Source: an uncultured Candidatus Saccharibacteria bacterium (GTDB lineage: Bacteria > Patescibacteriota > Andersenbacteria > UBA10190). From it: a stretch of DNA of 64,000 nt. Positions within the stretch are counted from its first letter, which is position 1. Every line of letters begins with the position of its first letter. The DNA lies in NCBI GenBank assembly GCA_964610055.1, contig CAZSUC010000001.1, positions 505,692 through 569,691 of the forward strand. The letters are read 5' to 3'. The translations under genes and the position numbers were made by a program. The notes below the pieces were generated by a model, which worked only from the letters and a program-made list of their open reading frames with translations, was not told the origin of the DNA and made no database searches. This document shows positions 2,642 through 58,018 of this stretch, piece by piece.

Positions 2642-3397
2642 TCATGAAGGTAAGGAACCAATTAATAAATCACGTACCATACGCTCATTCCCTTTATGTG
2701 TAACTACGTAGTGATAATCCCTTAATCTTCCGAAAGCCTGTTTTATTTCCGGAGTCGGACCATATTCTCGTAATTTTGTTTCTAAAAACTCATAGATCGC
2801 CGTAAAATCACTTTCAGTTAAGGGCTCTTTACTCTGAGAATAACCAATTCTCTCTGTAGTAGTCTGAGTTAACCATGATGGCTGACCGTTCTCCTGTAAG
2901 GTATGCATAACCGGCATTCTTAACATCACACAACGAGAACGAATCGTTGGCAATACTCGCCGCCATCTTGTCGTCGTTAAGAGGAATCTGGTTAACTGTT
3001 TTGGTTCTTCTAGCGTTTTTAGCAACATATTAGCTGCCGCTAATTCCAAGCGATCAGCTTCAGTAATAATTACAATTCTCGGTCCAGTCCATGCTGATAA
3101 ATTCAGCCAGCTCTTAATTTGTCTAATCTCTTTAATTTTAATTCTATTATTCTCTTGAAATGTCGAGAGAATATTAGGATAACTCCCCTCTTTAATTTGT
3201 TTACAGCTTCGGCATTGTTCGCATGGCTCTAATTTTCCCTCTGTCTCGCAAAATAATTGCTGTTGCATAGTTAAAGCCGCTTTTGCCAAAGCATCCGCAC
3301 TATCTCCGTGTAATAATAACGGCTGCGGAATCGTTTCGCTTGCTATCCACTTATTAATTTGCTCTTGAAAAATATCTGTCTTATTCAGACTAGTCAT
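2642..3397 (-). CDS. holB: DNA polymerase III delta-prime subunit (clamp-loader AAA+ family)
   Basis: Clamp-loader-like sequence (LLLHGDSADALAKAALTMQQQLFCE...CEQCRSCKQI...IVIITEADRL...KTLEEP). The ORF as given overlaps secF, so the start is more likely the internal Met at 3397. That start forms an ATGA overlap with the secF stop. Confidence 0.7.
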   Translation of the reverse strand: MTSLNKTDIFQEQINKWIASETIPQPLLLHGDSADALAKAALTMQQQLFCETEGKLEPCEQCRSCKQIKEGSYPNILSTFQENNRIKIKEIRQIKSWLNLSAWTGPRIVIITEADRLELAAANMLLKTLEEPKQLTRFLLTTTRWRRVLPTIRSRCVMLRMPVMHTLQENGQPSWLTQTTTERIGYSQSKEPLTESDFTAIYEFLETKLREYGPTPEIKQAFGRLRDYHYVVTHKGNERMVRDLLIGSLPS

Positions 3398-17807: not shown

Positions 17808-19262
17808 TTAAGGCTGTCTTTCTGGGGTTAAATCTAATGTGATGCGCCCAGTAATTCTCGGCACAGAACTAACCCAAAACGGCCATAAATCAATCTTAGC
17901 TTGTTGCACTCCCGGCAGCCCTTCCAAGTACTGATTTGCCCCAGATTCGCTTTGTCCAGCCAATTTTTCAGTTAAAGTATCAATAGCAATTTTAGGAATA
18001 GTCGTATGAGTAACCCGAGCTTTTATTATTGCTGTGCTGTCCTCCCAATTAATATCATCAGCTGTTTTAGAAAAAGAAATTGGACCGGGGAATAGCATAT
18101 AATCATCCTCTAAATGACTCTCTAGAGCTTGAGCCAAGGCATCCTCCAGGGCTTGTTGCTCGTAACCAAACACTCTCATGGTAATGCGCCCGCTGTATGT
18201 TAACTCGGGTATTCGGGTACCAACCTCAGGAGTCGTTGTAAAATTATCAATTTCTGCATTCCAACTCTCGTCTAGCAAAGTCCAGCCTTCAGGCAACTCG
18301 CTTCTAATATCAACCTCAACTTCGCTCTTAGCTGCTTCTGCCGCCGCCTGACGAGCAGATTCTATATCCGCTTCCGATACGACTTGCACTTCTTCGCCCG
18401 ACCCACCAGTAAAGGTAGTTGTTGTTTCTGCGTACACTAAAGCCTGAGCAGCGTCACTTAATGCTGCAAAATTTAATCTCTGCGGCTCAATGTTACCCTC
18501 TGGCCCTGCTACAGCCGCTTCTACTGTAGCAGTGGCTTGTGTGACTCCGCTCGCACTAGCAGCTGGCACAGTTACATTTTTGTCTAGATAAAACAATTGC
18601 CCATCAGTAGTAACTAAACGGCTGTGCTCAATAATTTTTTGTTCGTCAAAAGACCGATTGATAATTTTCACTGTTCCTCGGGCTTTCTCGCCAATAGTTT
18701 CTTTACCCTGTACTTGTACTGTCCCCTGAACCTCTATTTCTCGAAAAAAAGAAGTTCCCGTAATCGTATTTTCCCCGCCTCCTTCCGCCGCAATTTTTAT
18801 TTCTTCCTCTAGTAATAAAGGCGCAGTTTTTAGCGTTAACTCAATCTTAGCTTTTGGTAAAAAAATCGCTCCTGCTAATAACGCCGCTACCAAACCAATC
18901 GCTAAAATACTTAAAACAACTGCTCGCTCACGTACTCCTAAATGCGCAGCGCGGACAGGTGACTGCTCCTTTGATTGTTTAGATTCTTTTACTGGAATTC
19001 TGGGGGGCAATTTTTGAATTGCCTCACCTAACTCAGGCGTTGGTTCTGGTTGTAACTGAGCTTCTGGTTGTAATGAACCCTTACGCATTCTGCGTCCAAT
19101 TGACTGACTTGGATACGCTTTACGACTAATATCAAAGCTACTCACTCCTCGCTTCGCTGGACGACGAGTATTTGGTTGGTTGATCTCATTCCACTCAGGA
19201 TGATTTGTTTCCGGAATATGCGACTTAGGAGTAATCGAGTGATTAGGCTTAATGTCTCTCAT
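17808..19262 (-). CDS. Hypothetical single-pass membrane protein with proline/charged-rich N-terminal region and large extracytoplasmic domain
   Basis: A roughly 110-aa low-complexity N-terminus, one hydrophobic helix (AVVLSILAIGLVAALLAGAIFL), then about 340 aa with no motif I recognise. Confidence 0.4.
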   Translation of the reverse strand: MRDIKPNHSITPKSHIPETNHPEWNEINQPNTRRPAKRGVSSFDISRKAYPSQSIGRRMRKGSLQPEAQLQPEPTPELGEAIQKLPPRIPVKESKQSKEQSPVRAAHLGVRERAVVLSILAIGLVAALLAGAIFLPKAKIELTLKTAPLLLEEEIKIAAEGGGENTITGTSFFREIEVQGTVQVQGKETIGEKARGTVKIINRSFDEQKIIEHSRLVTTDGQLFYLDKNVTVPAASASGVTQATATVEAAVAGPEGNIEPQRLNFAALSDAAQALVYAETTTTFTGGSGEEVQVVSEADIESARQAAAEAAKSEVEVDIRSELPEGWTLLDESWNAEIDNFTTTPEVGTRIPELTYSGRITMRVFGYEQQALEDALAQALESHLEDDYMLFPGPISFSKTADDINWEDSTAIIKARVTHTTIPKIAIDTLTEKLAGQSESGANQYLEGLPGVQQAKIDLWPFWVSSVPRITGRITLDLTPERQP

Positions 19263-19287: not shown

Positions 19288-21069
19288 CTATTCCAAAACA
19301 GCTTTAATGCGACGAATGCCAGCTCCAGCCGATTCCTCTTTTTTTATCTTAAAATGGCCTAATTCTCCAGTGCGAGACACATGGGGACCTCCGCAAATCT
19401 CTTTTGAATAGTCACCAATCGTATAGACACTCACTTTTTCTTCATATTTATGGGTAAACAATCCAATCGCACCAGCAGCTTTTGCTTCACCCACTGTCAT
19501 CTCTTCTCTGATTACCGGTAAATTTTGTTCAATCTGTTCGTTAACCTGTTGCGTAACCTGGTCAATTTGTTCCGGAGTTAACTTCGCATCATGCGTAAAA
19601 TCAAATCGTAATCTTTCAGGATTTATATTGCTTCCTTTTTGTTGCACATGATCACCTATGATACGCCGCAAAGCCTGATGCAATAAATGTGTAGTCGTAT
19701 GATATCGAACTGATTGTTCCGAATGATCAGATAGGCCACCCGCAAAACGCCCTGCTGTTGCCGTGCGCGACGTATCGCGATGTTCTTGTAGCGCCTTATC
19801 AAAACCTGCGTGATCAATTTCTAACCCCTTTTCATGCGCAATCTCTTCAGTTAACTCTAACGGAAAACCATATGACTCATACAATCTAAACACAACATCG
19901 CCTGGAATTGTATCCTTCCAGTTAAAACCAGTCTTTGCTAATTCCTTTAACCCCCGATCTAAAGCTGACTGAAAACGTTGAATTTCTTGTCCCAACTCGT
20001 TCAAGACTAAATCTTGGTGCTTTCTTAAACTAGGATAAGATTCCGCATATTCATTAATTACACACTCCGCGCCCGCACGCATCAAAGTTTCAATATTTTT
20101 TATTCCCAAAATTCGCGCTGACCGAACTGCGCGTCGAATAATGCGACGTAAAACATAACCTTGTTCTGACTTACTAGGCGCAATCGGAACATCGTCCCCC
20201 AAGACAAAAGTCGCCGCTTTTATATGATCGGCTAAAATTCTTTCCTGTCTCTCGTCTGCTTGCGATTCATTTTGACGAATCAGTTCCATTAAAGGTTGAT
20301 AAGAGTCAATTTCATAAATCGAACTCAATCTATTCAAAACCATAACCGTTCGCTCTAAACCCATGCCAGTATCTACGTTTTGCTGTGGCAATGACTCATA
20401 TTCACCGCTATCCGTGCGGTTAAATTGCATAAATACGTCATTCCAAATTTCTACCCAAGAATTATTCTCTGGATCAAATTTAACTGGCGGATCGGATTCT
20501 CCGGTCCAAAAAAACATTTCTGTATCTGGCCCTTGCGGCCCCGGAGCCTTCCCTCCAGCTGGCCACCAGTTATCTTCTTTCCCTAAAAAGGCAATTCTTT
20601 CTTCTGGTACACCAACTGATTTCCACACTTCGAATGCTTCATTGTCCCGTTGGTTTTGCTTATCTCCTCCAAAGACACTTACTGCTAAATATTCAGGTTT
20701 GATTCCTAACCATCGCGCATCAGTCAAGAATTCCCAACTAAATCTAATTGCTTCTTCTTTAAAATAATCACCTAAAGACCAATTCCCTAACATTTCAAAT
20801 ACAGTGGCATGGGTCGGATCTCCCACAGCTTCAATATCGGTCGTGCGTAAACACTTTTGAACATCTGTTAAGCGCGTACCAGCTGGATGAGGCTGACCTT
20901 TTAAATACGGTACTAACGGGTGCATACCAGCCGTAGTAAACAAAACTGACGGATCATTTTCTGGTACTAAGGGTGCCGATGAGATACGTGCATGCCCTTT
21001 GCTTTCAAAAAAACGTTGATATGTTTCTCTTAAGTCTCGAGAGGTTAATTTCTGCATAAGTTGCAGCAT
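19288..21069 (-). CDS. alaS: Alanyl-tRNA synthetase, short form (catalytic and editing domains; no C-terminal C-Ala domain)
   Basis: Class II AlaRS N-terminus (FFESKGHARISSAPLVPENDPSVLFTTAGM) plus editing-domain motifs HTTTHLLHQAL and CGGPHV. At 593 aa it is far shorter than the roughly 870 aa of canonical AlaS. Confidence 0.85.
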   Translation of the reverse strand: MLQLMQKLTSRDLRETYQRFFESKGHARISSAPLVPENDPSVLFTTAGMHPLVPYLKGQPHPAGTRLTDVQKCLRTTDIEAVGDPTHATVFEMLGNWSLGDYFKEEAIRFSWEFLTDARWLGIKPEYLAVSVFGGDKQNQRDNEAFEVWKSVGVPEERIAFLGKEDNWWPAGGKAPGPQGPDTEMFFWTGESDPPVKFDPENNSWVEIWNDVFMQFNRTDSGEYESLPQQNVDTGMGLERTVMVLNRLSSIYEIDSYQPLMELIRQNESQADERQERILADHIKAATFVLGDDVPIAPSKSEQGYVLRRIIRRAVRSARILGIKNIETLMRAGAECVINEYAESYPSLRKHQDLVLNELGQEIQRFQSALDRGLKELAKTGFNWKDTIPGDVVFRLYESYGFPLELTEEIAHEKGLEIDHAGFDKALQEHRDTSRTATAGRFAGGLSDHSEQSVRYHTTTHLLHQALRRIIGDHVQQKGSNINPERLRFDFTHDAKLTPEQIDQVTQQVNEQIEQNLPVIREEMTVGEAKAAGAIGLFTHKYEEKVSVYTIGDYSKEICGGPHVSRTGELGHFKIKKEESAGAGIRRIKAVLE

Positions 21070-21110
21070 AGCTAATCTGTGCTATTCTGTCATCGTTGTT
21101 CTTATTTAAT

Positions 21111-21297
21111 GAGACTGTAGCTCAATGACAGAGCATGTGAATCCAGGACATAGGGTATGTCAAGTCCTATCTTCATAGAAAAACGGGATAAGTCAACTCC
21201 TCCCGATTTTTTGTGAATAGGGCGCAATTCTCTAATACAGAATTGCCGGCAGCACTATTGTCTTCACAGGTCGTGGGTTCAAATCCTACCAGTCTCA
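21111..21297 (+). tRNA. tRNA-like gene with a roughly 116-nt insertion within the anticodon arm. Anticodon unresolved (CCA/Trp if the insertion lies between positions 37 and 38).
   Basis: 21111-21140 reads GAGACTG-TA-GCTC-AATGACA-GAGC-A-TGTGA (acceptor 5' strand, D-arm, 5' anticodon stem). 21264-21297 reads TCACA-GGTC-GTGGG-TTCAAAT-CCTAC-CAGTCTC-A (3' anticodon stem, variable loop, canonical T-arm, and an acceptor 3' strand complementary 7/7 to 21111-21117, then the discriminator). No CCA is encoded. A plus-strand terminator follows. Confidence 0.5.
21179..21212. terminator. Bidirectional terminator-like hairpin located inside the tRNA insertion
   Basis: AAAAA, then CGGGA (21184-21188), a 12-nt loop, TCCCG (21201-21205), then ATTTTTT. 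The T-tract is present in both orientations. It could terminate the minus-strand LOG gene about 120 nt upstream. Confidence 0.45.
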
Positions 21298-21302
21298 TCT
21301 TT

Positions 21303-21329
21303 AGTCCCTTATTTATAAGGGACTTTCTT
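21303..21329 (+). terminator. Intrinsic terminator downstream of the tRNA-like gene
   Basis: A 9-bp stem, AGTCCCTTA (21303-21311) paired with TAAGGGACT (21316-21324), with a 4-nt loop, followed by TTCTT. The T-run exists only on the plus strand. Confidence 0.5.
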
Positions 21330-22017
21330 AAAAATACTTACGTTCTTTTGAATCCTTGATCAGATTGAAAGCTTCTTGAGCCGTATCTACGATTGTATAA
21401 ATTTCTGTATCTCCAGGCGCAATAGTTTTATATTTTTCCACTAAATGAGTTCTCACCCAACTATCAAGTGGACCCCAAAACTCAGCTCCTAGACAAATTG
21501 CTGGCACATCCTCCATTTTTTTAGTTTGCAGCAAAGTAATCATTTCAAAAAACTCGTCTAAAGTTCCAAACCCACCCGGAAAGAAAACATATGCCTGCGC
21601 TGAAGCTGACAGCATGACTTTACGAGTAAAGAAATAATGGAAACCAATACCTTTATCAACATATGGATTTCGTCGTTGTTCCGACGGTAATTCAATATCT
21701 AACCCTATCGATTCTCCACCGGCCTCATGTGCCCCCCGGTTACCAGCCTCCATAATTCCCGGCCCACCACCAGTAATCACAGTAAATCCTGCCTCTCCAA
21801 GTAATTGCCCTAACTCACGCGCTTGTTTATACCAAGGAGAATCTTCTGTTAAACGAGCTGACCCAAAAAAAGTTACTTCTTTTCTTAGTGGTGCTAAAAA
21901 TTCAAATCCAGAAATAAATTCAGCCATAATCCGAAAAATGCGCCAATTCGCATCCTCGGCAAAATTAAAAGGCTTATCAATATTGAACAAATCTACTTCC
22001 TTTGCAGTATTACGCAT
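21328..22017 (-). CDS. LOG-family protein (cytokinin riboside 5'-monophosphate phosphoribohydrolase / TIGR00730 family)
   Basis: Signature motifs GGGPGIMEA and PGGFGTLDE. Confidence 0.8.
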   Translation of the reverse strand: MRNTAKEVDLFNIDKPFNFAEDANWRIFRIMAEFISGFEFLAPLRKEVTFFGSARLTEDSPWYKQARELGQLLGEAGFTVITGGGPGIMEAGNRGAHEAGGESIGLDIELPSEQRRNPYVDKGIGFHYFFTRKVMLSASAQAYVFFPGGFGTLDEFFEMITLLQTKKMEDVPAICLGAEFWGPLDSWVRTHLVEKYKTIAPGDTEIYTIVDTAQEAFNLIKDSKERKYF

Positions 22018-23688: not shown

Positions 23689-24969
23689 TTATACGTACGG
23701 TAAATTATCAGGTGGTGTCGCCATACCACTCTTCGCCCAAGTAACTCCCGGAGTTCTAACATAACGAGTTGGCAAATGAAAGATTGTTGCTAGTTCTTCC
23801 GCTGTCATCATCTGACCCGACTCATCTCCCCAAAAATCACGGGATTGATAATTCACTAAGGCTACTCGTTTACGCCACATTCTTCGCGCATGCTTCATAA
23901 AATAATTTGGGCCATTAGTTTTATTTCTTGATGGCTTAAAACTATTTAAATGAAACGTATTAAATTGCTTAAAAGCACCAACGGCTTTACTGATATTGGG
24001 CTTATATAATTTTCCGGCCGGGGCAATATAAATCACTCGTATTTTTGCTAAAAACCCCGTTCGGGAAACTTTTTGCAATATTCCTTTCATGGCCGCATCT
24101 TCAGCCGGATTGCTAAACTTTAGGATACGTTCTTGTTTTTCTTCTTCCGCCACCAAAGCCTCAGGACCCTCAAAAGCCGCTTTCATCAGTAATAAGGGGA
24201 AAGATGCAATAGCTTGAACTGCGCGTACAAATAAATTGGGTTCCGGATCCTCCTGGGGCTTTCCTGATATTTTAGAAATTTCTTCTTGTCCTTTTTCCGC
24301 CCATTTTGCAATCGCTCCTGCATCTATCGGTCGGATAAGAACTTGTACCCAAAATTCTTCCCCCGAACCAACATTAGAATAAGCCTCCACTAATGCCTGA
24401 TGAGGATCCATAAACTTTATGTCTTCTGCCAAAGCTTCCTCGTATTCTCGATATACCCGAATCGGATAAATATCAGATTCCACCAATTCAATATCAGCGC
24501 TCCATAAATCGTATGTCTTCTCTAAATTACGATAATCAAAACGACGCGTATAATCTGGTGCTTCTTTCACTTCAGCAGAAGGATATTGTCCATAAATCAC
24601 TCCTTCAAAAAATTTTGCATGTGCTGTCGGAACTATCATGAAATAACGTACTTCATTTTGACGGCACCAGATTTCGCATGAATACCAAGCCAAGAAATAT
24701 CCCATAAAATATTTTTCAACCAAATCTGGATTTTTATGAATTCCACCCCACACTTCAAAAGCATTTTCCATTGCCTTTGGTGTTTGATCATTATCTTCTG
24801 GAATCGAAATCTCAAAAACAGTCCATTCAATCGTAGAAACGTATTCAATGTGCTTAATCAGACGATAAACCTCCCAGGCTATCCATAAAGCTAAGACCAT
24901 TACCAAAATCCAGCCCCACGCCAAAATAGCGTCAAGCAGCACCACCACGGCGGCGCCAAAATCTATCAT
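23689..24969 (-). CDS. Hypothetical membrane protein (N-terminal transmembrane helices plus a roughly 380-aa soluble domain), probably translationally coupled to the downstream ATPase
   Basis: N-terminal hydrophobic segments (AAVVVLLDAILAWGWILVMVLALWIAW). Only 3 nt separate it from the ATPase gene. No motif I recognise. Confidence 0.4.
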   Translation of the reverse strand: MIDFGAAVVVLLDAILAWGWILVMVLALWIAWEVYRLIKHIEYVSTIEWTVFEISIPEDNDQTPKAMENAFEVWGGIHKNPDLVEKYFMGYFLAWYSCEIWCRQNEVRYFMIVPTAHAKFFEGVIYGQYPSAEVKEAPDYTRRFDYRNLEKTYDLWSADIELVESDIYPIRVYREYEEALAEDIKFMDPHQALVEAYSNVGSGEEFWVQVLIRPIDAGAIAKWAEKGQEEISKISGKPQEDPEPNLFVRAVQAIASFPLLLMKAAFEGPEALVAEEEKQERILKFSNPAEDAAMKGILQKVSRTGFLAKIRVIYIAPAGKLYKPNISKAVGAFKQFNTFHLNSFKPSRNKTNGPNYFMKHARRMWRKRVALVNYQSRDFWGDESGQMMTAEELATIFHLPTRYVRTPGVTWAKSGMATPPDNLPYV

Positions 24970-36227: not shown

Positions 36228-37817
36228 ATGCTGTCAATCACCATTATTATACTCATCCTAGTCGGGGCTAGTACTATTACAGCGACAATTTTTTCCCAAG
36301 CATACTTTTGGCAACGCAAAGAATACCGTTGGGATCGGATGCGCTCTCTTCTAACTAGTGAAGAGCGCCAAGGTCCTTTCAGTTTTTGGCTCTTTTTAGG
36401 CATTACCTGTTTATTTTTTGCTTGGCTGGCTGTTTTTGAACAGCTATCTTTTGCCTCAGCCCTTAGCTTCATTAGTTTAATTGGTTTCAGTTTTCATCAC
36501 TTTTGGCGTATTTATCAACGCGGAATTTACCGCCCTGCCGTAACTGTAAAAGCCCTACTCGTCATCTTCTTTTCTGCTATCAGTCTAATGAGCTTGATTT
36601 TCTTAACCTATGAATCGACTTTATTATTAACGCTGCAATGGGCTTCCTTTATCTTCCTTGTCCCTTTCTTAACCGCATTTTCTGTCGGGCTAGTAAACCT
36701 GATAACTTATCCGCAACGACAACGCATTATTAATCACGCCCACTTATTACGTCGTAATCTTCCTACTCTTACCGTTGTTGGTATTACTGGTAGCTTTGGT
36801 AAAACTTCGACTAAATACTTTCTTAGTCAAATCCTTACTCACGCTAAACTCACTCATGTTTCTAGTCGTCACCACCGCAATTCAGAGTTAGCTATTGCTC
36901 AAGATATGATAACACAGCTATCACCTAAAACTAAGATTTATATCGCTGAAATGGGTGCCTATACTAAAGGAGAAATTGCTGCCTTAGCTCGCCTAACTCA
37001 GCCGCGACTCGGTATCATTACTAACATCGGCAACCAACATCTTGCTTTGTTTGGTTCACCTGAAAACTTAGCGACTGCTAAATGGGAACTCGCTCAAGAA
37101 TTGCCCCCAGATGGCACTCTGATCTTAAACCAGGACAACCCTATTCTGCGTGACAAAGCTCATAATTTCTCTGGACGCATTATCTGGTTTAGTACCGTTG
37201 CCGATGCCCAAATTAGAGCTGAAAGTATTGTCTCCTCTCCCCGTCAACTTGATTTCACTCTGCATATAAATAACGACCAACGCCATGTCACTATTCCGCT
37301 ATTAAGCCAAGCTCCTATCTCTAATATTCTGGCCGCCGTCGCTGGGGCGATGGCTCTCGGAGTTAATTCAAATGACATTTTTGCGGCACTTTCTCATCTT
37401 CAACCCATGCCTCGTACCATGGAATTAATAACTAAAAAAAATGGTCAAACTGTTATTGATGATAGCTATAGTGCTAATGAAACTGGCGTCTTAGAAGCAA
37501 TTCGTCATTTAGCTACTTTTCCTGATAAGCATAAAATTATTTTTCTTTCCCCTTTAATTGAACTTGGCTCACGCGCACATTTAACACATGAATTAATCGG
37601 CCAAGCGCTCAGTTCAGTTGATGCTCAAGTATATTTAACTAATTCGCATTATTCAGTCGACATTAAACATGGTTTCGGAACTGACTCATCCTCAAACCTG
37701 AAAATCGCGTCCAAACCAACTGAAATTAAAGCCGCCTTAGCCCAAATTCCTCCCGCAAGCGTAATCTTACTTGAAGGACGAATTCCTGAACTTGTCCGTA
37801 AATCCCTACTAAGTTAA
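36228..37817 (+). CDS. murF: MurF-like Mur ligase whose N-terminal domain is replaced by a roughly 170-aa five-transmembrane membrane domain
   Basis: P-loop VVGITGSFGKTSTK appears at about aa 185. MurF-specific motifs follow: ITNIGNQHLALFGS and VIDDSYSANETG (DDSYNAN-type). The first ~170 aa are five hydrophobic helices. Confidence 0.7.
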   Translation: MLSITIIILILVGASTITATIFSQAYFWQRKEYRWDRMRSLLTSEERQGPFSFWLFLGITCLFFAWLAVFEQLSFASALSFISLIGFSFHHFWRIYQRGIYRPAVTVKALLVIFFSAISLMSLIFLTYESTLLLTLQWASFIFLVPFLTAFSVGLVNLITYPQRQRIINHAHLLRRNLPTLTVVGITGSFGKTSTKYFLSQILTHAKLTHVSSRHHRNSELAIAQDMITQLSPKTKIYIAEMGAYTKGEIAALARLTQPRLGIITNIGNQHLALFGSPENLATAKWELAQELPPDGTLILNQDNPILRDKAHNFSGRIIWFSTVADAQIRAESIVSSPRQLDFTLHINNDQRHVTIPLLSQAPISNILAAVAGAMALGVNSNDIFAALSHLQPMPRTMELITKKNGQTVIDDSYSANETGVLEAIRHLATFPDKHKIIFLSPLIELGSRAHLTHELIGQALSSVDAQVYLTNSHYSVDIKHGFGTDSSSNLKIASKPTEIKAALAQIPPASVILLEGRIPELVRKSLLS

Positions 37818-37826
37818 GGTGCATCC

Positions 37827-39056
37827 ATGCGCAATATTCTTACATCAGTTTCCCCAAACCTTGAGAACGACGACGCTAAACTCGCTCTTAAGCAATTGTT
37901 CTCTCCTTGGAATTGGTTTAATCCTCATTATGTCAAAATTTTAACTGATCGCCTCCTCGCCCTTTATCCTAATCGTCACGCTATTCTCACAAGTTCAGGT
38001 CGTAGCGCTCTTTATGCGGTCCTTGCTCAATTAAAACTACGTCCTGACGACGAAGTTATTATTCAAGCTTTTACCTGCGTCACTGTTCCGGCTGCAATTC
38101 AATGGGCCGGCGGCAAACCAGTATATGCGGATATCAAACCTCGTACGTACAATTTAGACCCCGAATCTGTCTTACAAGTTATTACGTCTCACACCAAAGC
38201 TATTATTATCCAGCACACCCTCGGTTTACCGGCTGACCTATCAGTTTTTCAAGAAATTGCTCGACAACATAACATTTTCCTAATTGAAGATTGTGCCCAT
38301 GCTTTTGGCGCTAGCTATGCCGGACAATTAGTCGGATCCTTTGGTGACGCCGCCATTCTTAGTTTTGGCCGTGACAAAGCTTTATCCGGAGTTTTTGGTG
38401 GCACTGTTATTACTCCTAATTCTGATTTTGCTGATAAAATTCGCGCTGCTCAAGCAAGTCTACCTTTACCCCCTGTCTGGTGGATCATTCAACAGCTTTT
38501 ACATCCTCTTGTCTCTCGCTTAGTTATTCCTTTGTATTTCACGAGCAAAATCGGTCGTATTATTCTGGTTATCAGCCAAAAACTCAACCTTATTAGTAAA
38601 GCCGTTACTCCTTCTGAGCGAACGGGTGCCAAACCTTCATTGCTTTTTTGGCGCATGTCTCCCGCTTTAGCTATTTTAACTTCTCATCAACTCGATAAAC
38701 TGCTCCGTTTTACTTCTCATCGCCGTCATATTGCTCAAATTTATCTCGACCATTTAGCTAATCCACCTATTATCCCGACTACAGCTGAGCCATCTTGGTT
38801 ACGCTTTCCTCTAACAACGAAATATCCTCGTCGTTTACATATGCAAGCTCGTCGTTTACACATCCTTCTTGGTGATTGGTACGATGCCCCTATCGCCCCT
38901 CGCACTGTTAATCCAGCCGATTTTGGTTATCAGTCAGGTAGTTGTCCTGTTGCTGAATCAACTGCTCGTCGTATTGTTAATCTGCCAACTAATATTTTTG
39001 TCACTGAAAGCGACGCGCATCGTTTAATTCATTTAATTCAAAACCATGTCGCTTGA
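37827..39056 (+). CDS. DegT/DnrJ/EryC1/StrS-family PLP-dependent sugar aminotransferase
   Basis: Fold-type I aminotransferase with a putative Lys-bearing segment (SFGRDKALSG) and a sugar-aminotransferase-like N-terminus. Confidence 0.65.
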   Translation: MRNILTSVSPNLENDDAKLALKQLFSPWNWFNPHYVKILTDRLLALYPNRHAILTSSGRSALYAVLAQLKLRPDDEVIIQAFTCVTVPAAIQWAGGKPVYADIKPRTYNLDPESVLQVITSHTKAIIIQHTLGLPADLSVFQEIARQHNIFLIEDCAHAFGASYAGQLVGSFGDAAILSFGRDKALSGVFGGTVITPNSDFADKIRAAQASLPLPPVWWIIQQLLHPLVSRLVIPLYFTSKIGRIILVISQKLNLISKAVTPSERTGAKPSLLFWRMSPALAILTSHQLDKLLRFTSHRRHIAQIYLDHLANPPIIPTTAEPSWLRFPLTTKYPRRLHMQARRLHILLGDWYDAPIAPRTVNPADFGYQSGSCPVAESTARRIVNLPTNIFVTESDAHRLIHLIQNHVA

Positions 39057-40074
39057 AGTTCAGATCATTACTAATCAAACTGACTGGGAAAAATTAGTTC
39101 TCGCTGCTCATCCCAACACTTTTCTGCAATCATGGGCCTGGGGAGAAACTCAACTTGCTGATAACGAACAAATACAACGTCTTGTTGTTTTAGATCACAA
39201 TCACCCGATTGCCCTCGCAACCGTTATTTTAGTTAACGCCCGTCGTGGACGCCATTATTTAATTCCACACGGACCGCTTTATTTACAACCAGATCTCACC
39301 CCTCAAGCCTTAGATGCTATTATTGCGCATTTAAACACCACTGCTTCTATTGACCATGCTGTCGCCTTACGCATCGCCCCCCTACTTCTTACTTCGCCAG
39401 ATTCAAAGCAATTATTTAAATCACGAAATTTTCATCCTGCCCCCCTTCACGTTCACACTGAATTAACTTGGGTTTTAGACATTTCTCGTCCCAGTGACGA
39501 GTTACTTGCTGGTATGCGCAAAACTACTCGTCATGCTATCCGTAAAGCTGAACAAGCCGGGATCAGTTGTGAAATTATTACTGATATTTCTGCGCTTGAT
39601 CGTTTCTGGCCGCTTTACGATAAAACTCGACAACGGCATGGCTTCGTGCCCTTCAATTTAAAGTTTCTTACTAATCAATGGCATGCTTTTGAGTCTCATA
39701 ATCATATTTTTGCTGTCATTGCTCGTTATCATGATCAAGACGTCGCTGCTGGTATATTCATTGATTATGCCGGTACTGTTTTTTACCATCACGGCGCTTC
39801 TCTTAAACTGCCTAGCAATGTTCCTGCCGCCCACGCTGTTCAATGGCATGCTATCCAAGAAGCGCAACATCGTGGTGCCACTAATTTTAATTTCTGGGGC
39901 ATTGCGCCCGCTAATCAACCCAACCACCCATTCACTGGCATTCGGATTTTTAAAACTGGATTTGGCGGCCAAGCGTTTGATTATCTGCATGCCCAAGACC
40001 TCCCTTTCTCATGGCGCTATTGGTTCCTTTGGGGCGTAGATACTTATCGAAAATACCGTCGCGGATTCGCCTAG
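39046..40074 (+). CDS. FemAB-family aminoacyl-tRNA-dependent peptidoglycan peptidyltransferase (GNAT-like tandem fold)
   Basis: Length and sequence organisation of FemX/FemAB enzymes. Lies adjacent to murF and cell-wall genes. Confidence 0.65.
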   Translation: MSLEVQIITNQTDWEKLVLAAHPNTFLQSWAWGETQLADNEQIQRLVVLDHNHPIALATVILVNARRGRHYLIPHGPLYLQPDLTPQALDAIIAHLNTTASIDHAVALRIAPLLLTSPDSKQLFKSRNFHPAPLHVHTELTWVLDISRPSDELLAGMRKTTRHAIRKAEQAGISCEIITDISALDRFWPLYDKTRQRHGFVPFNLKFLTNQWHAFESHNHIFAVIARYHDQDVAAGIFIDYAGTVFYHHGASLKLPSNVPAAHAVQWHAIQEAQHRGATNFNFWGIAPANQPNHPFTGIRIFKTGFGGQAFDYLHAQDLPFSWRYWFLWGVDTYRKYRRGFA

Positions 40075-51023: not shown

Positions 51024-51368
51024 TCAATCCCTACGCTCCATTGCTTCAAAAGCCATATTCACTAGCGACAAAACTACACTAAACAGCAATGCCCACCAAA
51101 AACTGGCCACTTCAAATCCAGATACAATTTTACTCGCCAATAAAACCATAAAAGCATTAATCACAAACGCAAACAATCCTAGGCTTACAACTGTCAGAGG
51201 CAAAGTTAAAATTAACAATAAAGGTCTTAAAACAGCGTTTAAAATGCCTAAAACTAATGCCGTTACCGCTGCCGCCGCTATGCTTGTTACCATAACTCCC
51301 GGCAACAACCAAGTTGTAACCCCAATCGCTAAAGTTGCCACTAGCCATTTAAGCAATAATTTCATCAT
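51024..51368 (-). CDS. Small four-transmembrane protein of the phage-holin-4/DUF360-like family
   Basis: 114 aa with four hydrophobic helices and a pattern (LLPGV...LNAVLRPLLLILTLP) resembling PF04020-type proteins. Confidence 0.45.
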   Translation of the reverse strand: MMKLLLKWLVATLAIGVTTWLLPGVMVTSIAAAAVTALVLGILNAVLRPLLLILTLPLTVVSLGLFAFVINAFMVLLASKIVSGFEVASFWWALLFSVVLSLVNMAFEAMERRD

Positions 51369-51389: not shown

Positions 51390-52016
51390 TTATTTTACTC
51401 GTCGTACAGTCGTTAATAACCTCGTCTTCTGTTCAAGCGTGCCCATATCTCCTCGTCGATATGACGGTAATTCTTTACAAGCAAACGTACAGCGTCCATC
51501 TGGCCAGATTTTTCCGCTATAACTCCAACGTTTCAACCAAATCTTAACTATAGATTCCAAATCAACTTTCCAAATAACATTATTGTATTGAAATGCTTCG
51601 GGAAACATTTTGTGTAAACTTTTCAGTTCAGCCCCCATGCTCTCGAATATAAAATGATCCTTACATATATGTGGACCCATATACACCCCTTCAAGATCAT
51701 AAATATTTAAATAATCTTCTATCGCTCCCAAAATACCCGCGACTAATGATTTTCGGCTTACATGTGCGATTATGGCTTTCTCCTTACCTAGTAACCCTAG
51801 CGGCAAACAATCAGAAGTATATACCCCAGCCTCTATATTTTTCTCAGCAACCAAAATTCCATCGGCCACAGTCACTCCCCGCAATATTTTTTCTGCGGCC
51901 AGAATTACACCAGTATGTTGTTGTTTTGCCAATACTACCGGACTTTTAAAATCACGCTCTTGGCCACACCTCACCCGCCAGTTCCCGATCTCCAGAATTA
52001 AGATGGGCACATCCAA
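51390..52016 (-). CDS. pgeF: YfiH/PgeF-family (DUF152) laccase-domain protein / peptidoglycan editing factor
   Basis: Conserved Cys/His positions (TSDCLPL, IAHVSRKS, MGPHIC). Confidence 0.7.
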   Translation of the reverse strand: MDVPILILEIGNWRVRCGQERDFKSPVVLAKQQHTGVILAAEKILRGVTVADGILVAEKNIEAGVYTSDCLPLGLLGKEKAIIAHVSRKSLVAGILGAIEDYLNIYDLEGVYMGPHICKDHFIFESMGAELKSLHKMFPEAFQYNNVIWKVDLESIVKIWLKRWSYSGKIWPDGRCTFACKELPSYRRGDMGTLEQKTRLLTTVRRVK

Positions 52017-53776
52017 ATTCCAACCTCATTATTGAAAAACACAGCATCTTGTTTTTGAAGAAAATTCTCCCAAACTTGATATTCATCTTGAGACAGTAAT
52101 ATAAAATCTGCTTGTTTGCAGACTCGCGCCTGAGATTCAATATTCCCCGCAAAAGCTAACTGAATTTCGGCTAATAATTCATCATTCACAGATAACCAGT
52201 AATCTTTAGTACGTACTACAGTTCGTCCTGTAAACATTGGTATACTCCAAAAACTATCTGGATTTTGCAAAAATATAGCTGACTCAGCGGTTTGATCCTT
52301 AATCCACCTCAAAGCCTGTATTTCTTCACGACTCACTCGCTTTTCGTCTTGAAATAACAAACTATCCATTGTTGTCGCCATACTTGCCCCGACCGGCATC
52401 AGCATAATCATCACTATACTCAAACCACCTGCTAACCAAATTAACTGCATTATTCGCTCTTTCTTAAAGCTAATCCATATACCAACCCAACCTTTAATTA
52501 CTTTCTCAAATACTCCGACCGTCATTGGCCAAAGCAACAAAACTGCGTGATACCAAAACCGAGATGCATTTGCTATTACAAGCTCACGCTCCGAAAAAAT
52601 AAATGACACTAACCCTAACAGAACTAAAGTCACACCTAATCCAACTAAAATTGGCTTTTGCCGAAAATACAGAGCTGACCCTAAGCTTGTAATTATTATT
52701 AGCGGTGCTAATTTCATCGCGTCCAATGCCGCTGTGTATGAAAATTGAGGAACAATCGCTATTCCTCCCTCCCCAGGGGTAAACTTTAGAAAAATCACCA
52801 ACCACAACCCAATTCCTAAAACATATACCCAGCGAATTACTTTAGAATTTTGCGAATTTAACGCTTGCATTCCGTAACTCGCACAAATTAAACCTAAAGC
52901 CGCTGTTCCTGTAACCGCATTACTTAGGAGTAAAACTAAAGCAAATACAGCAGCTAATCCCCACTGCCACAAAGTTAGTTTATCCTTGTTGCTTTGTACC
53001 CTGTTCAATAAACCAACTAATCCTAAAAATATTCCCGTTAAGAAAAAATGACTTTGAGGATAAACAAAATTATCCCAACTCGTACCAATAACGTAGATCG
53101 CCATCAAACCTGTTAAAATAAGCATCATTCTACTGTTTAAATGTTGCGCAAACATTCGATCGTACCCCCAAAACAACAAAGGAATCGTGATTAAAACTTG
53201 TCCTAAGACCAACCACGGTAAGATAATTAACCAGTTATCAGCTAAACCCATCACCAAAACCAAGGTTGCTAATCCGCCGTGCAATAAAGTTGGATATTCT
53301 AAACCAGGTGAATACGAAAACGGGTTACGATCAAACAATCCCTGTTCCATTAACGAACCATTAACTAATGCGGATAAAGTCGCAGTATCTCCGTTATAAT
53401 ATCCATGTGCAATCCAACCACCATTCACCCAACCGTTCCGAGATAACACAATTATAGCCCCTAAAAAAACTAGGCTTGTTACTAAAACAACCGGCACCTC
53501 TTTTTTCCAAGTTTTTATTAAGACTTCTGGTAGCCGCCACTTTTTCCTATTCCAAAATCCTATCAACAAAAACAACACTGTTCCGATACCATACACATAT
53601 ATACTTGGCCAATTCGACCAAACCATACGATCAGCTATGGTTAGCACTAACCATTCTGCCTCCACCATAACACCAACTAGGGCTAGCCACACCGTCCATC
53701 TCTCTATTTTTCCGCACAATGATACTCCCAATACAGCTGAGCTCAATAAGCCTAAACCAATTAATAACCACATCAT
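51998..53776 (-). CDS. Polytopic membrane protein with C-terminal soluble domain (GT-C-like putative glycan polymerase/transferase)
   Basis: Twelve or more transmembrane helices followed by a ~170-aa hydrophilic C-terminus. Sits in a glycan-biosynthesis context. No definitive motif. Confidence 0.3.
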   Translation of the reverse strand: MMWLLIGLGLLSSAVLGVSLCGKIERWTVWLALVGVMVEAEWLVLTIADRMVWSNWPSIYVYGIGTVLFLLIGFWNRKKWRLPEVLIKTWKKEVPVVLVTSLVFLGAIIVLSRNGWVNGGWIAHGYYNGDTATLSALVNGSLMEQGLFDRNPFSYSPGLEYPTLLHGGLATLVLVMGLADNWLIILPWLVLGQVLITIPLLFWGYDRMFAQHLNSRMMLILTGLMAIYVIGTSWDNFVYPQSHFFLTGIFLGLVGLLNRVQSNKDKLTLWQWGLAAVFALVLLLSNAVTGTAALGLICASYGMQALNSQNSKVIRWVYVLGIGLWLVIFLKFTPGEGGIAIVPQFSYTAALDAMKLAPLIIITSLGSALYFRQKPILVGLGVTLVLLGLVSFIFSERELVIANASRFWYHAVLLLWPMTVGVFEKVIKGWVGIWISFKKERIMQLIWLAGGLSIVMIMLMPVGASMATTMDSLLFQDEKRVSREEIQALRWIKDQTAESAIFLQNPDSFWSIPMFTGRTVVRTKDYWLSVNDELLAEIQLAFAGNIESQARVCKQADFILLSQDEYQVWENFLQKQDAVFFNNEVGIWMCPS

Positions 53777-54584: not shown

Positions 54585-55754
54585 GTGCGCATTGTTTTTG
54601 TCACAACTCTTTCTTTATCCGGCTCCACTAACCGCGGCCGCATTATTCCTCTCGCTCAACAACTCTCCCGTCACCACAATGTTCATTTACTTACATTACG
54701 ATCCCACACCTCCGACTCTTCATCCTGTCCGACTGGTTTATCCTGTCACATAGTTGGCACTGAACCTTTTTATCGCCATCAAAACGGAAAAAAACGTCTC
54801 AAAAATATCAGTTTATTTGTTAACATGTTAGCGACTGCCTGGCATATTTTTCGCACTTTAACTCATCTGCGTCCTGACTGTGTTATTGTTTCCAAACCAC
54901 TTCCGCACAACACTCTCGGTGTCTTACTATGGCATTGGTTTAGCCGTCTTCATACCTCTATTATCTTAGATGTTGACGACTTCGAATTGTCCGCTAACCA
55001 ACTCTCTTCTTGGCTTCAACGCGCTAGTATTCATTGGTCGGAACGTATGGCTACGTCTTTAAGCAACCAAATTATTGCCGCCACCCCTTTTCTTGTTGAT
55101 CATTTTCAATTTTTAAAACCTAGTGCTTCAGTTCATTTGATTCCTACCGGCATTAATCCTGTCTCTTTGCCACTTCATCAGACATCTCACTCTTCGCAAC
55201 CCATTATTACTTATTTAGGTAGTTTATCGCGCTCATCAGGCCATCCAATTGAGTTATTACCAGCCATAATGAAAGAATTGGTTACTTTTCAGCCTAGCGC
55301 CCAACTCTTGATTGCCGGTTCTGGCGATGACGAGTCTTTCTTGCGCCAAAAAATACAAGAACTCCACTTATCAAAACAGGTGATTTGGTATGGAGCCTTT
55401 ACTCCAAACAATTTATCTGACATCTTAACACGCACTACTATAATCATTGATCCAATCAATAACAGTGTAACCGAAAGAGCAAAAAGCAGCTTTCGTTCCG
55501 TTTTAGCTATAGTTACCGGAAAACCATTAGTAACTAGCAATATTGGCATTCGCGCCGATATCGTGCCTCCTTCTTTTCATGATCGTTTTTTTGCCGAACC
55601 AAACAATGTTCATGCTTATGCCAAAGTAATTAACCATTTAATTACGAACCCACTTTCAACTTCCGAATCGTCTACTTTAATAGCTTACGGTCAAAAATAT
55701 ACTTGGCCCATTCTCGCTAATTCCTATAACTCAATTATTAACCACGCATCATGA
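54585..55754 (+). CDS. Divergent GT-B-fold glycosyltransferase (GT4-like)
   Basis: Two-domain architecture. The C-terminal half resembles GT4 but lacks a clear EX7E motif. Confidence 0.35.
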   Translation: MRIVFVTTLSLSGSTNRGRIIPLAQQLSRHHNVHLLTLRSHTSDSSSCPTGLSCHIVGTEPFYRHQNGKKRLKNISLFVNMLATAWHIFRTLTHLRPDCVIVSKPLPHNTLGVLLWHWFSRLHTSIILDVDDFELSANQLSSWLQRASIHWSERMATSLSNQIIAATPFLVDHFQFLKPSASVHLIPTGINPVSLPLHQTSHSSQPIITYLGSLSRSSGHPIELLPAIMKELVTFQPSAQLLIAGSGDDESFLRQKIQELHLSKQVIWYGAFTPNNLSDILTRTTIIIDPINNSVTERAKSSFRSVLAIVTGKPLVTSNIGIRADIVPPSFHDRFFAEPNNVHAYAKVINHLITNPLSTSESSTLIAYGQKYTWPILANSYNSIINHAS

Positions 55755-58018
55755 TTACTGTTATTTTGTCTGTCATTGCACCACTCCTCTTTTTTTTCAT
55801 CCCCGGATGTATTTTTATTCGTTCACGGCAATCCATTATTCACGCTTCAGCGTTAATTTTTCTTACTAGCTTAGTTTTCTTTACTTTAACTAGTTTTGTC
55901 CTCACTTATTTCCATCTGTCTTTATGGTGGTGCTGGGGACTTGCTTTTTTAATTACTTTCTATGGATTTTGGCACCACCGTCACGAATTAATCGCCGCAC
56001 GACACCATTTCTTATTAATTCTTAGTGTTTTTCTCTTATTATTTGGCATTTTTTCTCTGCCGCTTCTTTTATTACGTGACGGACTGCCAACCGGAGACAG
56101 CCAAAAAGCCATTTACTGGGCCGAGCATATTTATACTAATCATCACCTTCCTGATTACAGTCAGAGCATAGAACTATTTAATCGTGATCCTGTCGACTTC
56201 TATACTCCTGGACTGCATACCCTAGTCGCCGCTTTACTACCAATCACTAGCCTTGCTCTTATCAGCGTGTCCTTCCTATCAATTGCCCTAAGTATTGCCA
56301 CTGCTTTTGTCTTGGCCGCTACTGCTCGTCTTATTTTCCCCCATATTGCCCGTCTACCTCTTATCTTTTTGACTATTTTTCTTATTCTCACCAACCTTAG
56401 ATTCTCTCGATATCTCATTGATCCTGGCTATCACTTACAAAACATTGCCGGAGAATTTTTCTTATTCGGAGCAATATATCTTTGTCTTTTATTAGTTCGA
56501 CATCATTTAACCTGGCCTCGCGTCACTCTTTTAGCCGCGCTCTTAGTCGCGCTATTTATCACCCATCAATTCTCTGCCTTTATTGCGGCTTTTGTCCTCC
56601 TGCCTTTTGCCGTCCCCCTCACACTTAAAGCTTTTGCCTCTGCTCGCAATCGTTATCGCTTTTTGCCCTTTATTCTTGGGATTCTGATTGCAACTCTAAT
56701 ATTAATTGCCTTTCAGCTAGGCTTGCATCAAAAAATTGGTGATTTCTTTACTACGACTCCGCATTTGCTTGCAGATACTCCGAACTTATCCGACTACCCT
56801 CGTCTTCTGGGCATCACCTGGACCTTCTTAAGTTTAACCGGAATTGGCTTATTCATTATTTCTCTACGCTCATCTTCTCAACGTTCATTGCATCTAACCT
56901 ACTTGATTTCCCTTCTGGTCTTACTTGCTCTTTCCCAAGCCCCACATTTTGGTCTTGATATCCCCCCTGTGCGCGCTTTGTTCTACGTTATTGCACCTCT
57001 AAGTATTTTTGCTGCTTTTGCTTGGATAGAAATTTATAAATTAATGCTTACCTGGCGTTCTAATCGTTGGCGTTATATTTTACCTACTTTATCTTCAATT
57101 ATACTAATTACAATTATTACTATTCCAGCCATTGCTTCATACCAACCCAATTTTTCTGTTCGTACTAATTCAACCTTACAACCCGAAATTATAGCGGCCT
57201 TATCCGAACTTAACTTACTCTCTGACAAATCCGGTTTAGTTGCTGACGATTACAATCAGCGCAGCACCTCTTGGTTTCTTTTATCTAGCCACCCCGTTTT
57301 TTCTCGATCCGCTGATGACTTAAGTCGCATTATGGCTGAATCCAATCAATCTGAATTACGTCACACTATTTACTTAAACCAACTTGACTACGAAAAAATA
57401 TTTGATCTAGGCAATTCCGACTGTTTACCAGCTCTACTGAATGCTCATGACATCAATTGGATTGTCGCCGACAATGACACATCTACCTCAAGCTTTACTC
57501 GTAATCAAAACCTTCAAACAGTTTTTACCGGCTCAACTTTCACTATCTTTCATTATAACGAGCAAGATATTAATGATTCTTCTCCTCTCTGTTCCTGGCT
57601 CTTGAAATCAAGCACTTTAGCTAATGACTTAGGTGATGACGAAGATATTTACTTGCACTTACCTGCCAGCTTACGCACTACTCGCCTCGATGATAACGGC
57701 AATACTACTGCTCCTATCATCCCACTATATTTTAACGTCGGTACCTACAATCAAGCTCTTATTGATCAAGACAAAAATCAGTACCCTGATTCATCCTTAC
57801 AGCTTTATCTTAGTTTCAACACTTCTCCCCATACTAATCTCACAGTTCAAACACCCAGCGGAACAATTTTACCCATTACTTCCGATTCCGCACTGAAAAT
57901 CGAACCACAACAACTTAAAATCGATAATGAAGGATTTATTGTTCTTAATCTCTTAAATCCCCAACAAAGTCTTGTTAATCTTGATCTTATTGCTTTAGGT
58001 TTAGCTAATACCCCATGA
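55751..58018 (+). CDS. Large polytopic membrane protein with C-terminal extracytoplasmic domain (GT-C / PMT-ArnT-like candidate)
   Basis: About 13 transmembrane helices. An early loop (DGLPTGDSQKAIYWAEHIYTNHHLPDY) is reminiscent of GT-C acceptor-loop regions. The C-terminal ~300 aa are soluble. Confidence 0.3.
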   Translation: MITVILSVIAPLLFFFIPGCIFIRSRQSIIHASALIFLTSLVFFTLTSFVLTYFHLSLWWCWGLAFLITFYGFWHHRHELIAARHHFLLILSVFLLLFGIFSLPLLLLRDGLPTGDSQKAIYWAEHIYTNHHLPDYSQSIELFNRDPVDFYTPGLHTLVAALLPITSLALISVSFLSIALSIATAFVLAATARLIFPHIARLPLIFLTIFLILTNLRFSRYLIDPGYHLQNIAGEFFLFGAIYLCLLLVRHHLTWPRVTLLAALLVALFITHQFSAFIAAFVLLPFAVPLTLKAFASARNRYRFLPFILGILIATLILIAFQLGLHQKIGDFFTTTPHLLADTPNLSDYPRLLGITWTFLSLTGIGLFIISLRSSSQRSLHLTYLISLLVLLALSQAPHFGLDIPPVRALFYVIAPLSIFAAFAWIEIYKLMLTWRSNRWRYILPTLSSIILITIITIPAIASYQPNFSVRTNSTLQPEIIAALSELNLLSDKSGLVADDYNQRSTSWFLLSSHPVFSRSADDLSRIMAESNQSELRHTIYLNQLDYEKIFDLGNSDCLPALLNAHDINWIVADNDTSTSSFTRNQNLQTVFTGSTFTIFHYNEQDINDSSPLCSWLLKSSTLANDLGDDEDIYLHLPASLRTTRLDDNGNTTAPIIPLYFNVGTYNQALIDQDKNQYPDSSLQLYLSFNTSPHTNLTVQTPSGTILPITSDSALKIEPQQLKIDNEGFIVLNLLNPQQSLVNLDLIALGLANTP

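Follow-up and report, generated by a model that had tools for sequence, protein, structure and literature searches.

Introns of archaeal and eukaryal tRNAs at position 37/38 are cut at the motif termed bulge-helix-bulge (BHB), and the intron of the archaeal tRNA-Trp is about 100 nucleotides (nt) long. Modules shaped like tRNA also occur in RNAs that do not decode, as in the tRNA-like domain of transfer-messenger RNA (tmRNA), in the bacterial Y RNA (YrlA) and in engineered tRNA scaffolds where an insert takes the place of the anticodon loop, and RNase III excises the intervening sequences of bacterial rRNAs with no subsequent religation. For bacterial tRNA group I introns (n = 333), lengths of 184–894 nt have been reported, with insertion at every position of the anticodon loop except 37/38, and such introns are frequent in the tRNA genes of Patescibacteria (Nakagawa et al., PMC13011429; the main text of that survey does not mention Trp). 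Some bacteria of the candidate phyla radiation (CPR), of the Microgenomates, carry an extra tRNA-Trp with A73 and archaeal identity, whose operon also contains ORF1 and TrpRS-A (Mukai et al. 2017, PMC5370408). Here, a 64,000-nt stretch of DNA from Candidatus Andersenbacteria (Patescibacteria, CPR; contig CAZSUC010000001.1), termed the window throughout, was analyzed for an interrupted, tRNA-shaped gene on its plus strand (21111–21297), which lies between the genes for alanyl-tRNA synthetase (alaS) and a protein of the LOG/TIGR00730 family (LOG).

An earlier examination of the same DNA, referred to as the sequence-only reading, had described a tRNA-like gene split in the anticodon arm by an insert of about 116 nt, and had pointed to rRNA and tRNA introns reported in CPR-type bacteria. 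This description held, and the host is a CPR bacterium. Direct reading of the window revealed a complete cloverleaf with its halves ~116 nt apart, and both the stem pairings that had been proposed (Table 1) and the canonical T arm were confirmed. The stems of 7, 4, 5 and 5 base pairs (bp) and the GTTCRAATC-type T loop are those of a decoding tRNA. When its intron option was switched on, ARAGORN called a tRNA-Trp(CCA) at 21110–21299 with an intron of 116 nt, in agreement with the insert length and with the CCA that had been given as the best reading of the anticodon. Default ARAGORN reported nothing in the whole window, nor did Rfam at the gathering score.

Under identical settings, the intron mode of ARAGORN remained silent over 2.56 Mb of shuffled sequence (the window shuffled 40 times with dinucleotides preserved), which ruled out a chance origin of the call. 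The LOG-alaS spacer was found to be identical in sequence in an independent assembly (L081, from SRR8925805), and an assembly artefact is therefore unlikely. The 187-nt RNA was predicted to fold as a cloverleaf plus a structured insert (z = −5.9), and typing of the tRNA body by its nearest neighbours among 785 ARAGORN-called tRNAs yielded no more than a generic, Thr/Arg/Met/Lys-like assignment.

A single orthologue was recovered through LOG homologues and contig look-ups. This locus, L084, from a sister lineage, encodes a LOG protein 85% identical to that of the window and carries a tRNA-shaped gene with a 105–110-nt insert at the same position. Stem pairs were scored after the two structures had been aligned by hand, since RNAalifold on a MAFFT alignment misaligned the anticodon stem, and the 26 pairs compared were those of the acceptor, D, anticodon and T stems together with the first five of P1, the helix at the base of the insert. 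Between the two copies 17 pairs were unchanged, one had changed on one side and eight on both sides, and none was broken; of 200,000 simulations run under neutrality with the substitution rate observed for the stems, none left every pair intact. The third codon positions of LOG are 47.5% identical between the window and L084, so that neutral sites are close to saturated. Eight double changes with no broken pair at such near-saturated neutral divergence indicate that the stems are under selection. The T loop, U8 and the D stem are also intact in both copies. The homologous P1 strand of L084, GAAGAATGGG, shows compensation at two of the first five pairs, and the two copies have in common a 5-bp anticodon stem, a 4–5-nt bulge on the 5' side and a P1 that starts with a G.U pair (GGACAUAGGG in the window, opening with G21146.U21263; GAAGAAUGGG in L084). 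The tRNA-shaped RNA gene with its interrupted anticodon loop is thus confirmed as real and structurally conserved.

The remainder of the RNA was found to differ. The 5' bulge reads AUCCA in the window and GCGC in L084, and the loop equivalents are AUCCAGG and GCGCGAA, respectively. The insert interior shares neither sequence nor stability between the copies (z = −5.8 in the window versus −1.5 in L084), the L084 insert being no more stable than shuffled sequence. In the window the interior forms two hairpins. The core of hairpin A, AAAAACGGGA...TCCCGATTTTTT (21179–21212), resembles a bidirectional terminator. Hairpin B had been described from the sequence; its 8-bp stem and 7-nt loop exist as stated, while its coordinates, first given as 21223–21245, are corrected in Table 1. 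The exons are ~72% identical, which is far below expectation for orthologous tRNAs at this divergence. The comparison indicates that selection keeps the tRNA-like body and the insert base, but not the anticodon loop or the insert interior.

The potential of the two copies to decode was assessed from the same sequences. In the window copy the loop can be read as AUCCAGG or AUCCAGU, either of which has U33, CCA and a purine at 37 and is formally valid. The L084 copy has no CCA, and no choice of splice sites yields both U33 and purine 37: its loop reads either GCGCGAA, with C33, or CUCUUUA, with U37. The Lys(CUU) that ARAGORN called there carries U37 and is possible only if the stem is shifted and a G.A mismatch accepted. 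A valid loop is therefore present in the window but not conserved in the orthologue. A G at position 19 is near-universal in tRNA D loops, as is the G19–C56 pair. The D loop of L084, AAGCGGTA, is canonical, with G18 and G19, whereas the window copy has A19. The bacterial Trp identity element G73 is also missing from the window copy, which has A73 with a first pair of G1–C72.

One interpretation of these data, which we favor tentatively and with less than even confidence, is that the gene specifies an RNA that is restricted to a lineage, derived from a tRNA and without a decoding role, which would be matured in the manner of a tRNA and act through its tRNA-like body. The sequence-only reading had offered a small intron, a tRNA inactivated by a miniature insertion and a tRNA-derived RNA as options, and it is the last of these that fits best. 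The different loops, the lack of a valid loop in L084, A19, the exon divergence and the unconserved insert interior all argue against decoding, and a non-decoding tRNA-derived RNA is considered more likely than a spliced tRNA-Trp. In the proposed model, an RNA gene that has a terminator and probably also a promoter to itself, sited in the changeable LOG-alaS spacer on the opposite strand to its neighbours, would be expressed as a transcript that folds into a cloverleaf with an opened anticodon loop. The 5-bp anticodon stem, the 4–5-nt 5' bulge and a P1 of ~9–10 bp would be followed by ~90 nt of freely evolving hairpins. Maturation would proceed as for a tRNA, RNase P making the 5' end while the 3' end is trimmed and receives CCA, and the product would not be spliced into a decoding tRNA. 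The insert would be a tolerated or scaffolded expansion, and the tRNA-like body could engage a tRNA-binding enzyme as a stable tRNA mimic, a decoy or an adaptor, although any such mode of action is a guess. If true, the gene would exemplify in nature the reuse of a tRNA body for an RNA that does not decode.

The nearest parallels to such an RNA are tmRNA, YrlA and the tRNA scaffolds, which likewise keep the acceptor–T–D body with an unrelated extended helix at the anticodon end, and from which no decoding is expected. Unlike tmRNA, the present RNA has no G3.U70 pair and no tag reading frame; unlike YrlA, it ends at the acceptor stem and not at the extended helix; and unlike either, it has no Rfam match, and neither of the partner genes smpB and rsr was seen in the window. 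No tmRNA was found in the tmRNA mode of ARAGORN, and the only Rfam tmRNA match was one of 18 nt in the T arm, at 9.5 bits. Pair 3:70 is G-C in both copies, on which ground a tmRNA-like function, or charging with alanine beside alaS, was rejected; an SRP RNA, 6S RNA or Y RNA hidden in the insert was rejected as no Rfam match was obtained. The insert also recalls the intervening sequences of rRNA, in that a fast-evolving extra helical element, patchy among relatives, stands on a conserved base helix. In this case, however, the host RNA is tRNA-shaped, and cutting without ligation would leave a nicked, non-decoding tRNA.

Several observations weigh against the non-decoding reading. The comparison rests on one pair, only two independent sequences being known, and the stems are defined in each sequence by its own complementarity. 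The window copy has a formally valid anticodon loop (U33, CCA, G37), and G1–C72 with A73 is an archaeal-type Trp identity set known in some CPR bacteria (PMC5370408); loop and identity set together fit a real tRNA-Trp. An unconstrained insert interior, moreover, is also to be expected of an intron.

It could be, then, that the gene is an intron-containing tRNA-Trp(CCA) of archaeal-type identity (G1–C72, A73, G37), with a 116-nt intron at or next to 37/38 that would be removed by a mechanism so far undescribed in bacteria, for example a structure-specific endonuclease at the bulge/P1 junction with an RtcB-type ligase, or an unrecognised small ribozyme. The clean ARAGORN cloverleaf and the valid window loop agree with this, as do exon helices that are kept by compensation while the insert interior drifts; the architecture shared at the insert base could be a recognition motif. 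Extra A73 tRNA-Trp genes of archaeal identity are documented in CPR bacteria (PMC5370408), and tRNA introns are common in Patescibacteria (PMC13011429). The locus resembles the published A73 genes in its CPR host, its CCA reading, A73 and G1–C72, and in being supernumerary and rare. It differs from them in having an insert, no intron being mentioned there (PMC5370408), in an orthologue that is not Trp-like, and in that no TrpRS-A/ORF1 operon adjoins it. Also against an intron are the L084 copy, without CCA or a valid anticodon loop, and the A19 of the window, which would break the near-universal G19–C56 pair. By our estimate, moreover, a valid U33/purine 37 frame arises by chance in ~1/8 of random loops. 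No gene for a splicing enzyme (EndA, ligase) was seen in the 64 kb or in ~10 kb of flanking sequence, out of a genome of ~700 kb, and to our knowledge no EndA is known in the bacterial host of this gene. On balance, a spliced tRNA-Trp is regarded as unlikely.

The sequence-only reading had placed the insertion at 37/38, the archaeal site. That placement is compatible with the sequence, but 38/39 can be read equally well and is the choice made by ARAGORN, while L084 has no compatible reading. The insert otherwise resembles the archaeal tRNA-Trp intron: on the 37/38 reading it lies one base 3' of the anticodon of a gene that reads as tRNA-Trp(CCA), with G1–C72 and A73, it is of the order of 100 nt, and its interior is variable. 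However, box C/D motifs are lacking and the host is bacterial. A strict script looking for a BHB (two 3-nt bulges and a 4-bp helix) at the exon junctions found none in the window or in L084; a relaxed search gave hundreds of meaningless matches, which were discarded. In place of a BHB, the predicted folds of both copies contain a single bulge of 4–5 nt, on the 5' strand only and beside the anticodon stem, which is the wrong side, while the 3' strand of P1 is unbulged and stacks directly on the anticodon stem, giving a handedness opposite to that of the archaeal splice motif. An intron of the archaeal/eukaryal BHB type was accordingly rejected. Thus, of the proposal of an intron at the archaeal site, the reading with CCA, U33 and purine 37 stands, and the missing BHB, the L084 loop, A19 and A73, and the absence of the gene from about a dozen relatives speak against the rest. 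The strict script did return a BHB-like geometry inside hairpin A, at 21173–21223 (RNA positions 63–113; UCU/UCAU/AGA/AAAA paired with UUUU/GUGA/AUA/GGG). This geometry leaves the exon junctions unenclosed and probably arose by chance.

A relationship to the group I introns of bacterial tRNA genes (PMC13011429; bioRxiv 10.1101/2020.01.27.920355) was also considered, as these too interrupt tRNA genes in CPR bacteria within the anticodon loop, are missed by default annotation tools and are found by ARAGORN in intron mode. A small or degenerate self-splicing intron of group I or II would have their frequency in Patescibacteria tRNA genes (PMC13011429) in its favor. The covariance models gave it no support: Rfam searches at E ≤ 10 with window 20950–21450 and with the L084 copy returned no group I (Intron_gpI), group II or ribozyme match, and hence no catalytic core, in line with the sequence-only reading, in which no P/Q/R/S core elements of group I had been recognised. 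At 116 nt the insert falls below the 184–894-nt range, and no such intron has been reported at 37/38 (PMC13011429), the site here being 37/38 or 38/39 in a loop that the orthologue does not conserve. The boundary rule for group I (U-1/omega-G) also failed, as none of eight boundary choices gave a U-ending exon, a G-ending intron and a 7-nt loop. The only U-ending 5' exon, after U33, permits no G-ending intron that leaves a 7-nt loop, and the CCA readings leave G as the last base of the exon and U or C as that of the intron. Group II introns would require a domain V/VI match and a length of several hundred nt or more, neither of which is seen. A group I or II intron is thus very improbable.

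The insert therefore fits no known intron type. It might represent a new class of bacterial tRNA intron, of ~105–116 nt and neither group I, group II nor BHB, that would be recognised through the anticodon stem, the 5' bulge and the G.U-starting P1 and removed by an endonuclease/ligase pair or a minimal ribozyme, with a tRNA-Trp(CCA) of archaeal identity as the product in the lineage of the window; this we consider decidedly unlikely. Whether intron-bearing or non-decoding, the gene shows that default tRNA annotation overlooks genes of this kind in CPR genomes.

The distribution of the gene was studied in relatives, in all of which LOG and alaS are adjacent. The spacer was empty or unrelated, and the gene absent, in L001–L006, L014, L082, L085, L087, L168–L171 and L253; L082 lacks it despite a LOG 86% identical to that of the window. 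The comparison of related genomes that had been suggested at the outset thus yielded an insert-bearing copy in L084 only, with absence in about a dozen relatives, and it is therefore improbable that the cell has no tRNA-Trp besides this gene. A synteny scan of genome contigs with AlaRS recovered conserved LOG-alaS pairs with empty spacers, a metagenome scan with LOG gave only distant relatives, none with the RNA, among the matches listed, and an AlaRS N-terminal search with one contig look-up produced no further orthologue. No tRNA was found in the ~10 kb of flanking sequence added to the window. In the supplementary table of Nakagawa et al. (PMC13011429, supplementary file 2, Table 2), the entries for about 60 of the 95 complete Patescibacteria genomes each list at least one ordinary tRNA-Trp by tRNAscan-SE. 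Since every genome so tabulated has one, the present genome presumably has an ordinary tRNA-Trp elsewhere. In that table, the Dojkabacteria genome GCA_016699595.1 is listed with two tRNA-Trp by ARAGORN intron mode and one by tRNAscan-SE, a mismatch that may reflect another interrupted tRNA-Trp-like gene in a CPR genome.

The spacer itself is a hot spot of change, measuring only 25–110 nt in other relatives. That of L014 (about 2740–3000) holds three copies of a ~25-nt repeat, GCGAAGCGAGTCGTAGGGTGCC; that of L005 holds GC-rich hairpins; and those of L002 and L253 hold small extra open reading frames (ORFs). Pattern scans of viral contigs and BLAST searches of phages returned only ordinary tRNAs or tandem tRNA arrays. 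Two viral contigs, L182 (1496–1779) and L202 (5522–5813), gave intron-mode calls of tRNA-Asn(GTT) with introns of 208 and 218 nt, respectively, placed one base after the first position of the anticodon in ARAGORN numbering. They resemble the group I introns at 35/36 described by Nakagawa et al., here in viral contigs.

Such patchiness would be expected if the gene were a decaying relic, that is a supernumerary tRNA gene, possibly borne by a mobile element or phage, that was disrupted by an insertion in its anticodon loop. The different inserts held by the spacer in different relatives, the fast evolution of the exons, the distinct decoding defects of the two copies (the window having A19 and L084 lacking a valid loop) and the L084 insert that is no more stable than shuffled sequence all point the same way. 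Decay is difficult to reconcile, however, with eight double compensatory changes and 0 of 26 pairs broken at near-saturated neutral divergence, with an intact T loop, U8 and D stem in both copies, and with a terminator that is kept in both and strong in L084. No second copy of the insert was present in the window or in ~170 other loci compared, and no target-site duplication was evident at its borders. A relic is judged unlikely, and the finding would have little significance if it were merely a decaying extra tRNA. The inactivation of a tRNA by a miniature insertion, as once suggested, could not be upheld in view of stems conserved between two copies and the lack of a second insert in the window and those loci, and a miniature mobile insertion derived from a miniature inverted-repeat transposable element or an insertion sequence was rejected on the same grounds and for want of a duplication.

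Table 1. Features of the interrupted tRNA-shaped gene and its surroundings, in window coordinates.
Feature	Position	Strand	Basis and remarks
tRNA-like body, 5' half	21111..21140	+	ARAGORN, fold; stems kept in L084 by compensation
Acceptor stem, GAGACTG with CAGTCTC	21111-17 with 21290-96	+	7/7 paired
U8 and A9, then D arm; A26	21120-34 (D arm)	+	D stem GCTC/GAGC, 4/4 paired
D loop AATGACA (window copy)		+	A where G19 expected; without G19
Anticodon stem, TGTGA with TCACA	21136-40 with 21264-68	+	5/5 paired; 6/6 counting A21141-T21263
5' bulge AUCCA, 5 nt (positions 32-36 equivalent)	21141..21145	+	Fold; only anticodon-like triplet is CCA
P1 helix, 5' strand GGACATAGGG	21146..21155	+	Fold; pairs with 21253-21263, stacked on anticodon stem
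Hairpin A (long)	21164..21223	+	Fold; not conserved in L084
Hairpin B, 8-bp stem GCAATTCT-CTAATAC-AGAATTGC, 7-nt loop CUAAUAC	21224..21246	+	No L084 counterpart
P1 helix, 3' strand CACTATTGTCT	21253..21263	+	Fold, structural alignment
tRNA-like body, 3' half	21264..21297	+	ARAGORN, fold, structural alignment
Variable loop GGTC, 4 nt	between anticodon-stem 3' strand (21264-68) and T arm	+	
T arm, GTGGG-TTCAAAT-CCTAC	21273-89	+	T loop TTCAAAT
Discriminator A	21297	+	CCA end not encoded
Terminator-like hairpin AGTCCCTTA-TTTA-TAAGGGACT, then TTCTT	21303..21329	+	Direct reading; abuts LOG stop codon
Conserved promoter block	21061..21093	.	Between alaS start and RNA gene
alaS (alanyl-tRNA synthetase), divergent neighbour	19288..21057	-	Likely true start ATG 21057
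LOG/TIGR00730-family gene, convergent neighbour	21328..22017	-	Homologue comparison

The RNA gene is on the plus strand, and alaS and LOG, on either side, are on the opposite strand (Table 1). The mechanical ORF start of alaS is at 21069, but its relatives align from ATG 21057. The promoter block is ~90% identical between the window and L084, whose RNA gene adjoins the same block, while the neighbouring spacer has diverged. A promoter scan found ATGACA-N17-TATGCT on its minus strand, which probably drives alaS. As this site ends 8 nt before ATG 21057, a leaderless or very short-leader alaS mRNA is suggested for this subclade. On the plus strand TTGCAG-N16-TATTCT could be read directly, below the threshold of the scan, and may drive the RNA gene. 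At the other end, the window hairpin that abuts the LOG stop codon was not listed by a simple terminator scan; L084 has a stronger plus-strand terminator in the same place, 3' of its RNA gene (GCCCCCAA...TTGGGGGC followed by T7).

The position of the element directly upstream of alaS, and LOG and alaS being close and co-directional in relatives, would suit a minus-strand element that serves alaS as its operator or structured leader, and in tRNA-dense phage DNA the intron mode of ARAGORN does make spurious calls. Yet, read on the minus strand, the G.U pairs that both copies have in the T stem and P1 would be C.A mismatches; only on the plus strand is the T loop canonical, as is the D loop of L084; and the L084 terminator works on the plus strand only. 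On the same three grounds of G.U pairs, T loop and terminator polarity, a minus-strand alaS leader was rejected, and for the G.U pairs, the canonical T loop and the strong L084 terminator the plus strand is taken to be the functional one. With no calls in 2.56 Mb of shuffles and no nearby tRNA from which a ghost exon could come, a match due to chance or to the software fares no better, and an explanation of either kind is scarcely credible.

Homologues of AlaRS and LOG assign the window to Candidatus Andersenbacteria, and the genes that surround the RNA stand in an order usual for this group. On the alaS side lie genes for S9, L13, L17, RpoA, S4, S11 and S13, an unknown 484-amino-acid (aa) ORF and alaS, and on the other LOG is followed by genes for a VirD4-like ATPase, a DUF8128 protein and a sigma-70-region-4/HARE-HTH protein and by mur/ftsW genes. 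GC skew is strongly negative across the whole window (−0.17 to −0.31). Almost all genes within 0–36 kb are on the minus strand, the RNA gene being one of only two plus-strand features there.

Further features of the window were recorded. In the branching of cell-wall peptides, FemAB enzymes take aminoacyl-tRNAs as their donors, and non-decoding tRNA-like species are known in that setting; a FemAB-family gene (39046–40074) stands together with a Mur-ligase-like gene and a DegT-type aminotransferase gene at 36228–40074 on the plus strand. Large ORFs of 370–755 aa without a Pfam match at the thresholds applied are present at 17808–19262, 23689–24969, 51998–53776, 55751–58018 and 61781–62893, and include the 484-aa gene beside alaS and a 426-aa gene whose relatives have DUF8128. 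Genes for glycosyltransferases, polysaccharide flippases, O-antigen-ligase-like proteins and MurJ form a long run at 40071–63980, in which a small protein of a phage-holin family is also encoded, at 51024–51368.

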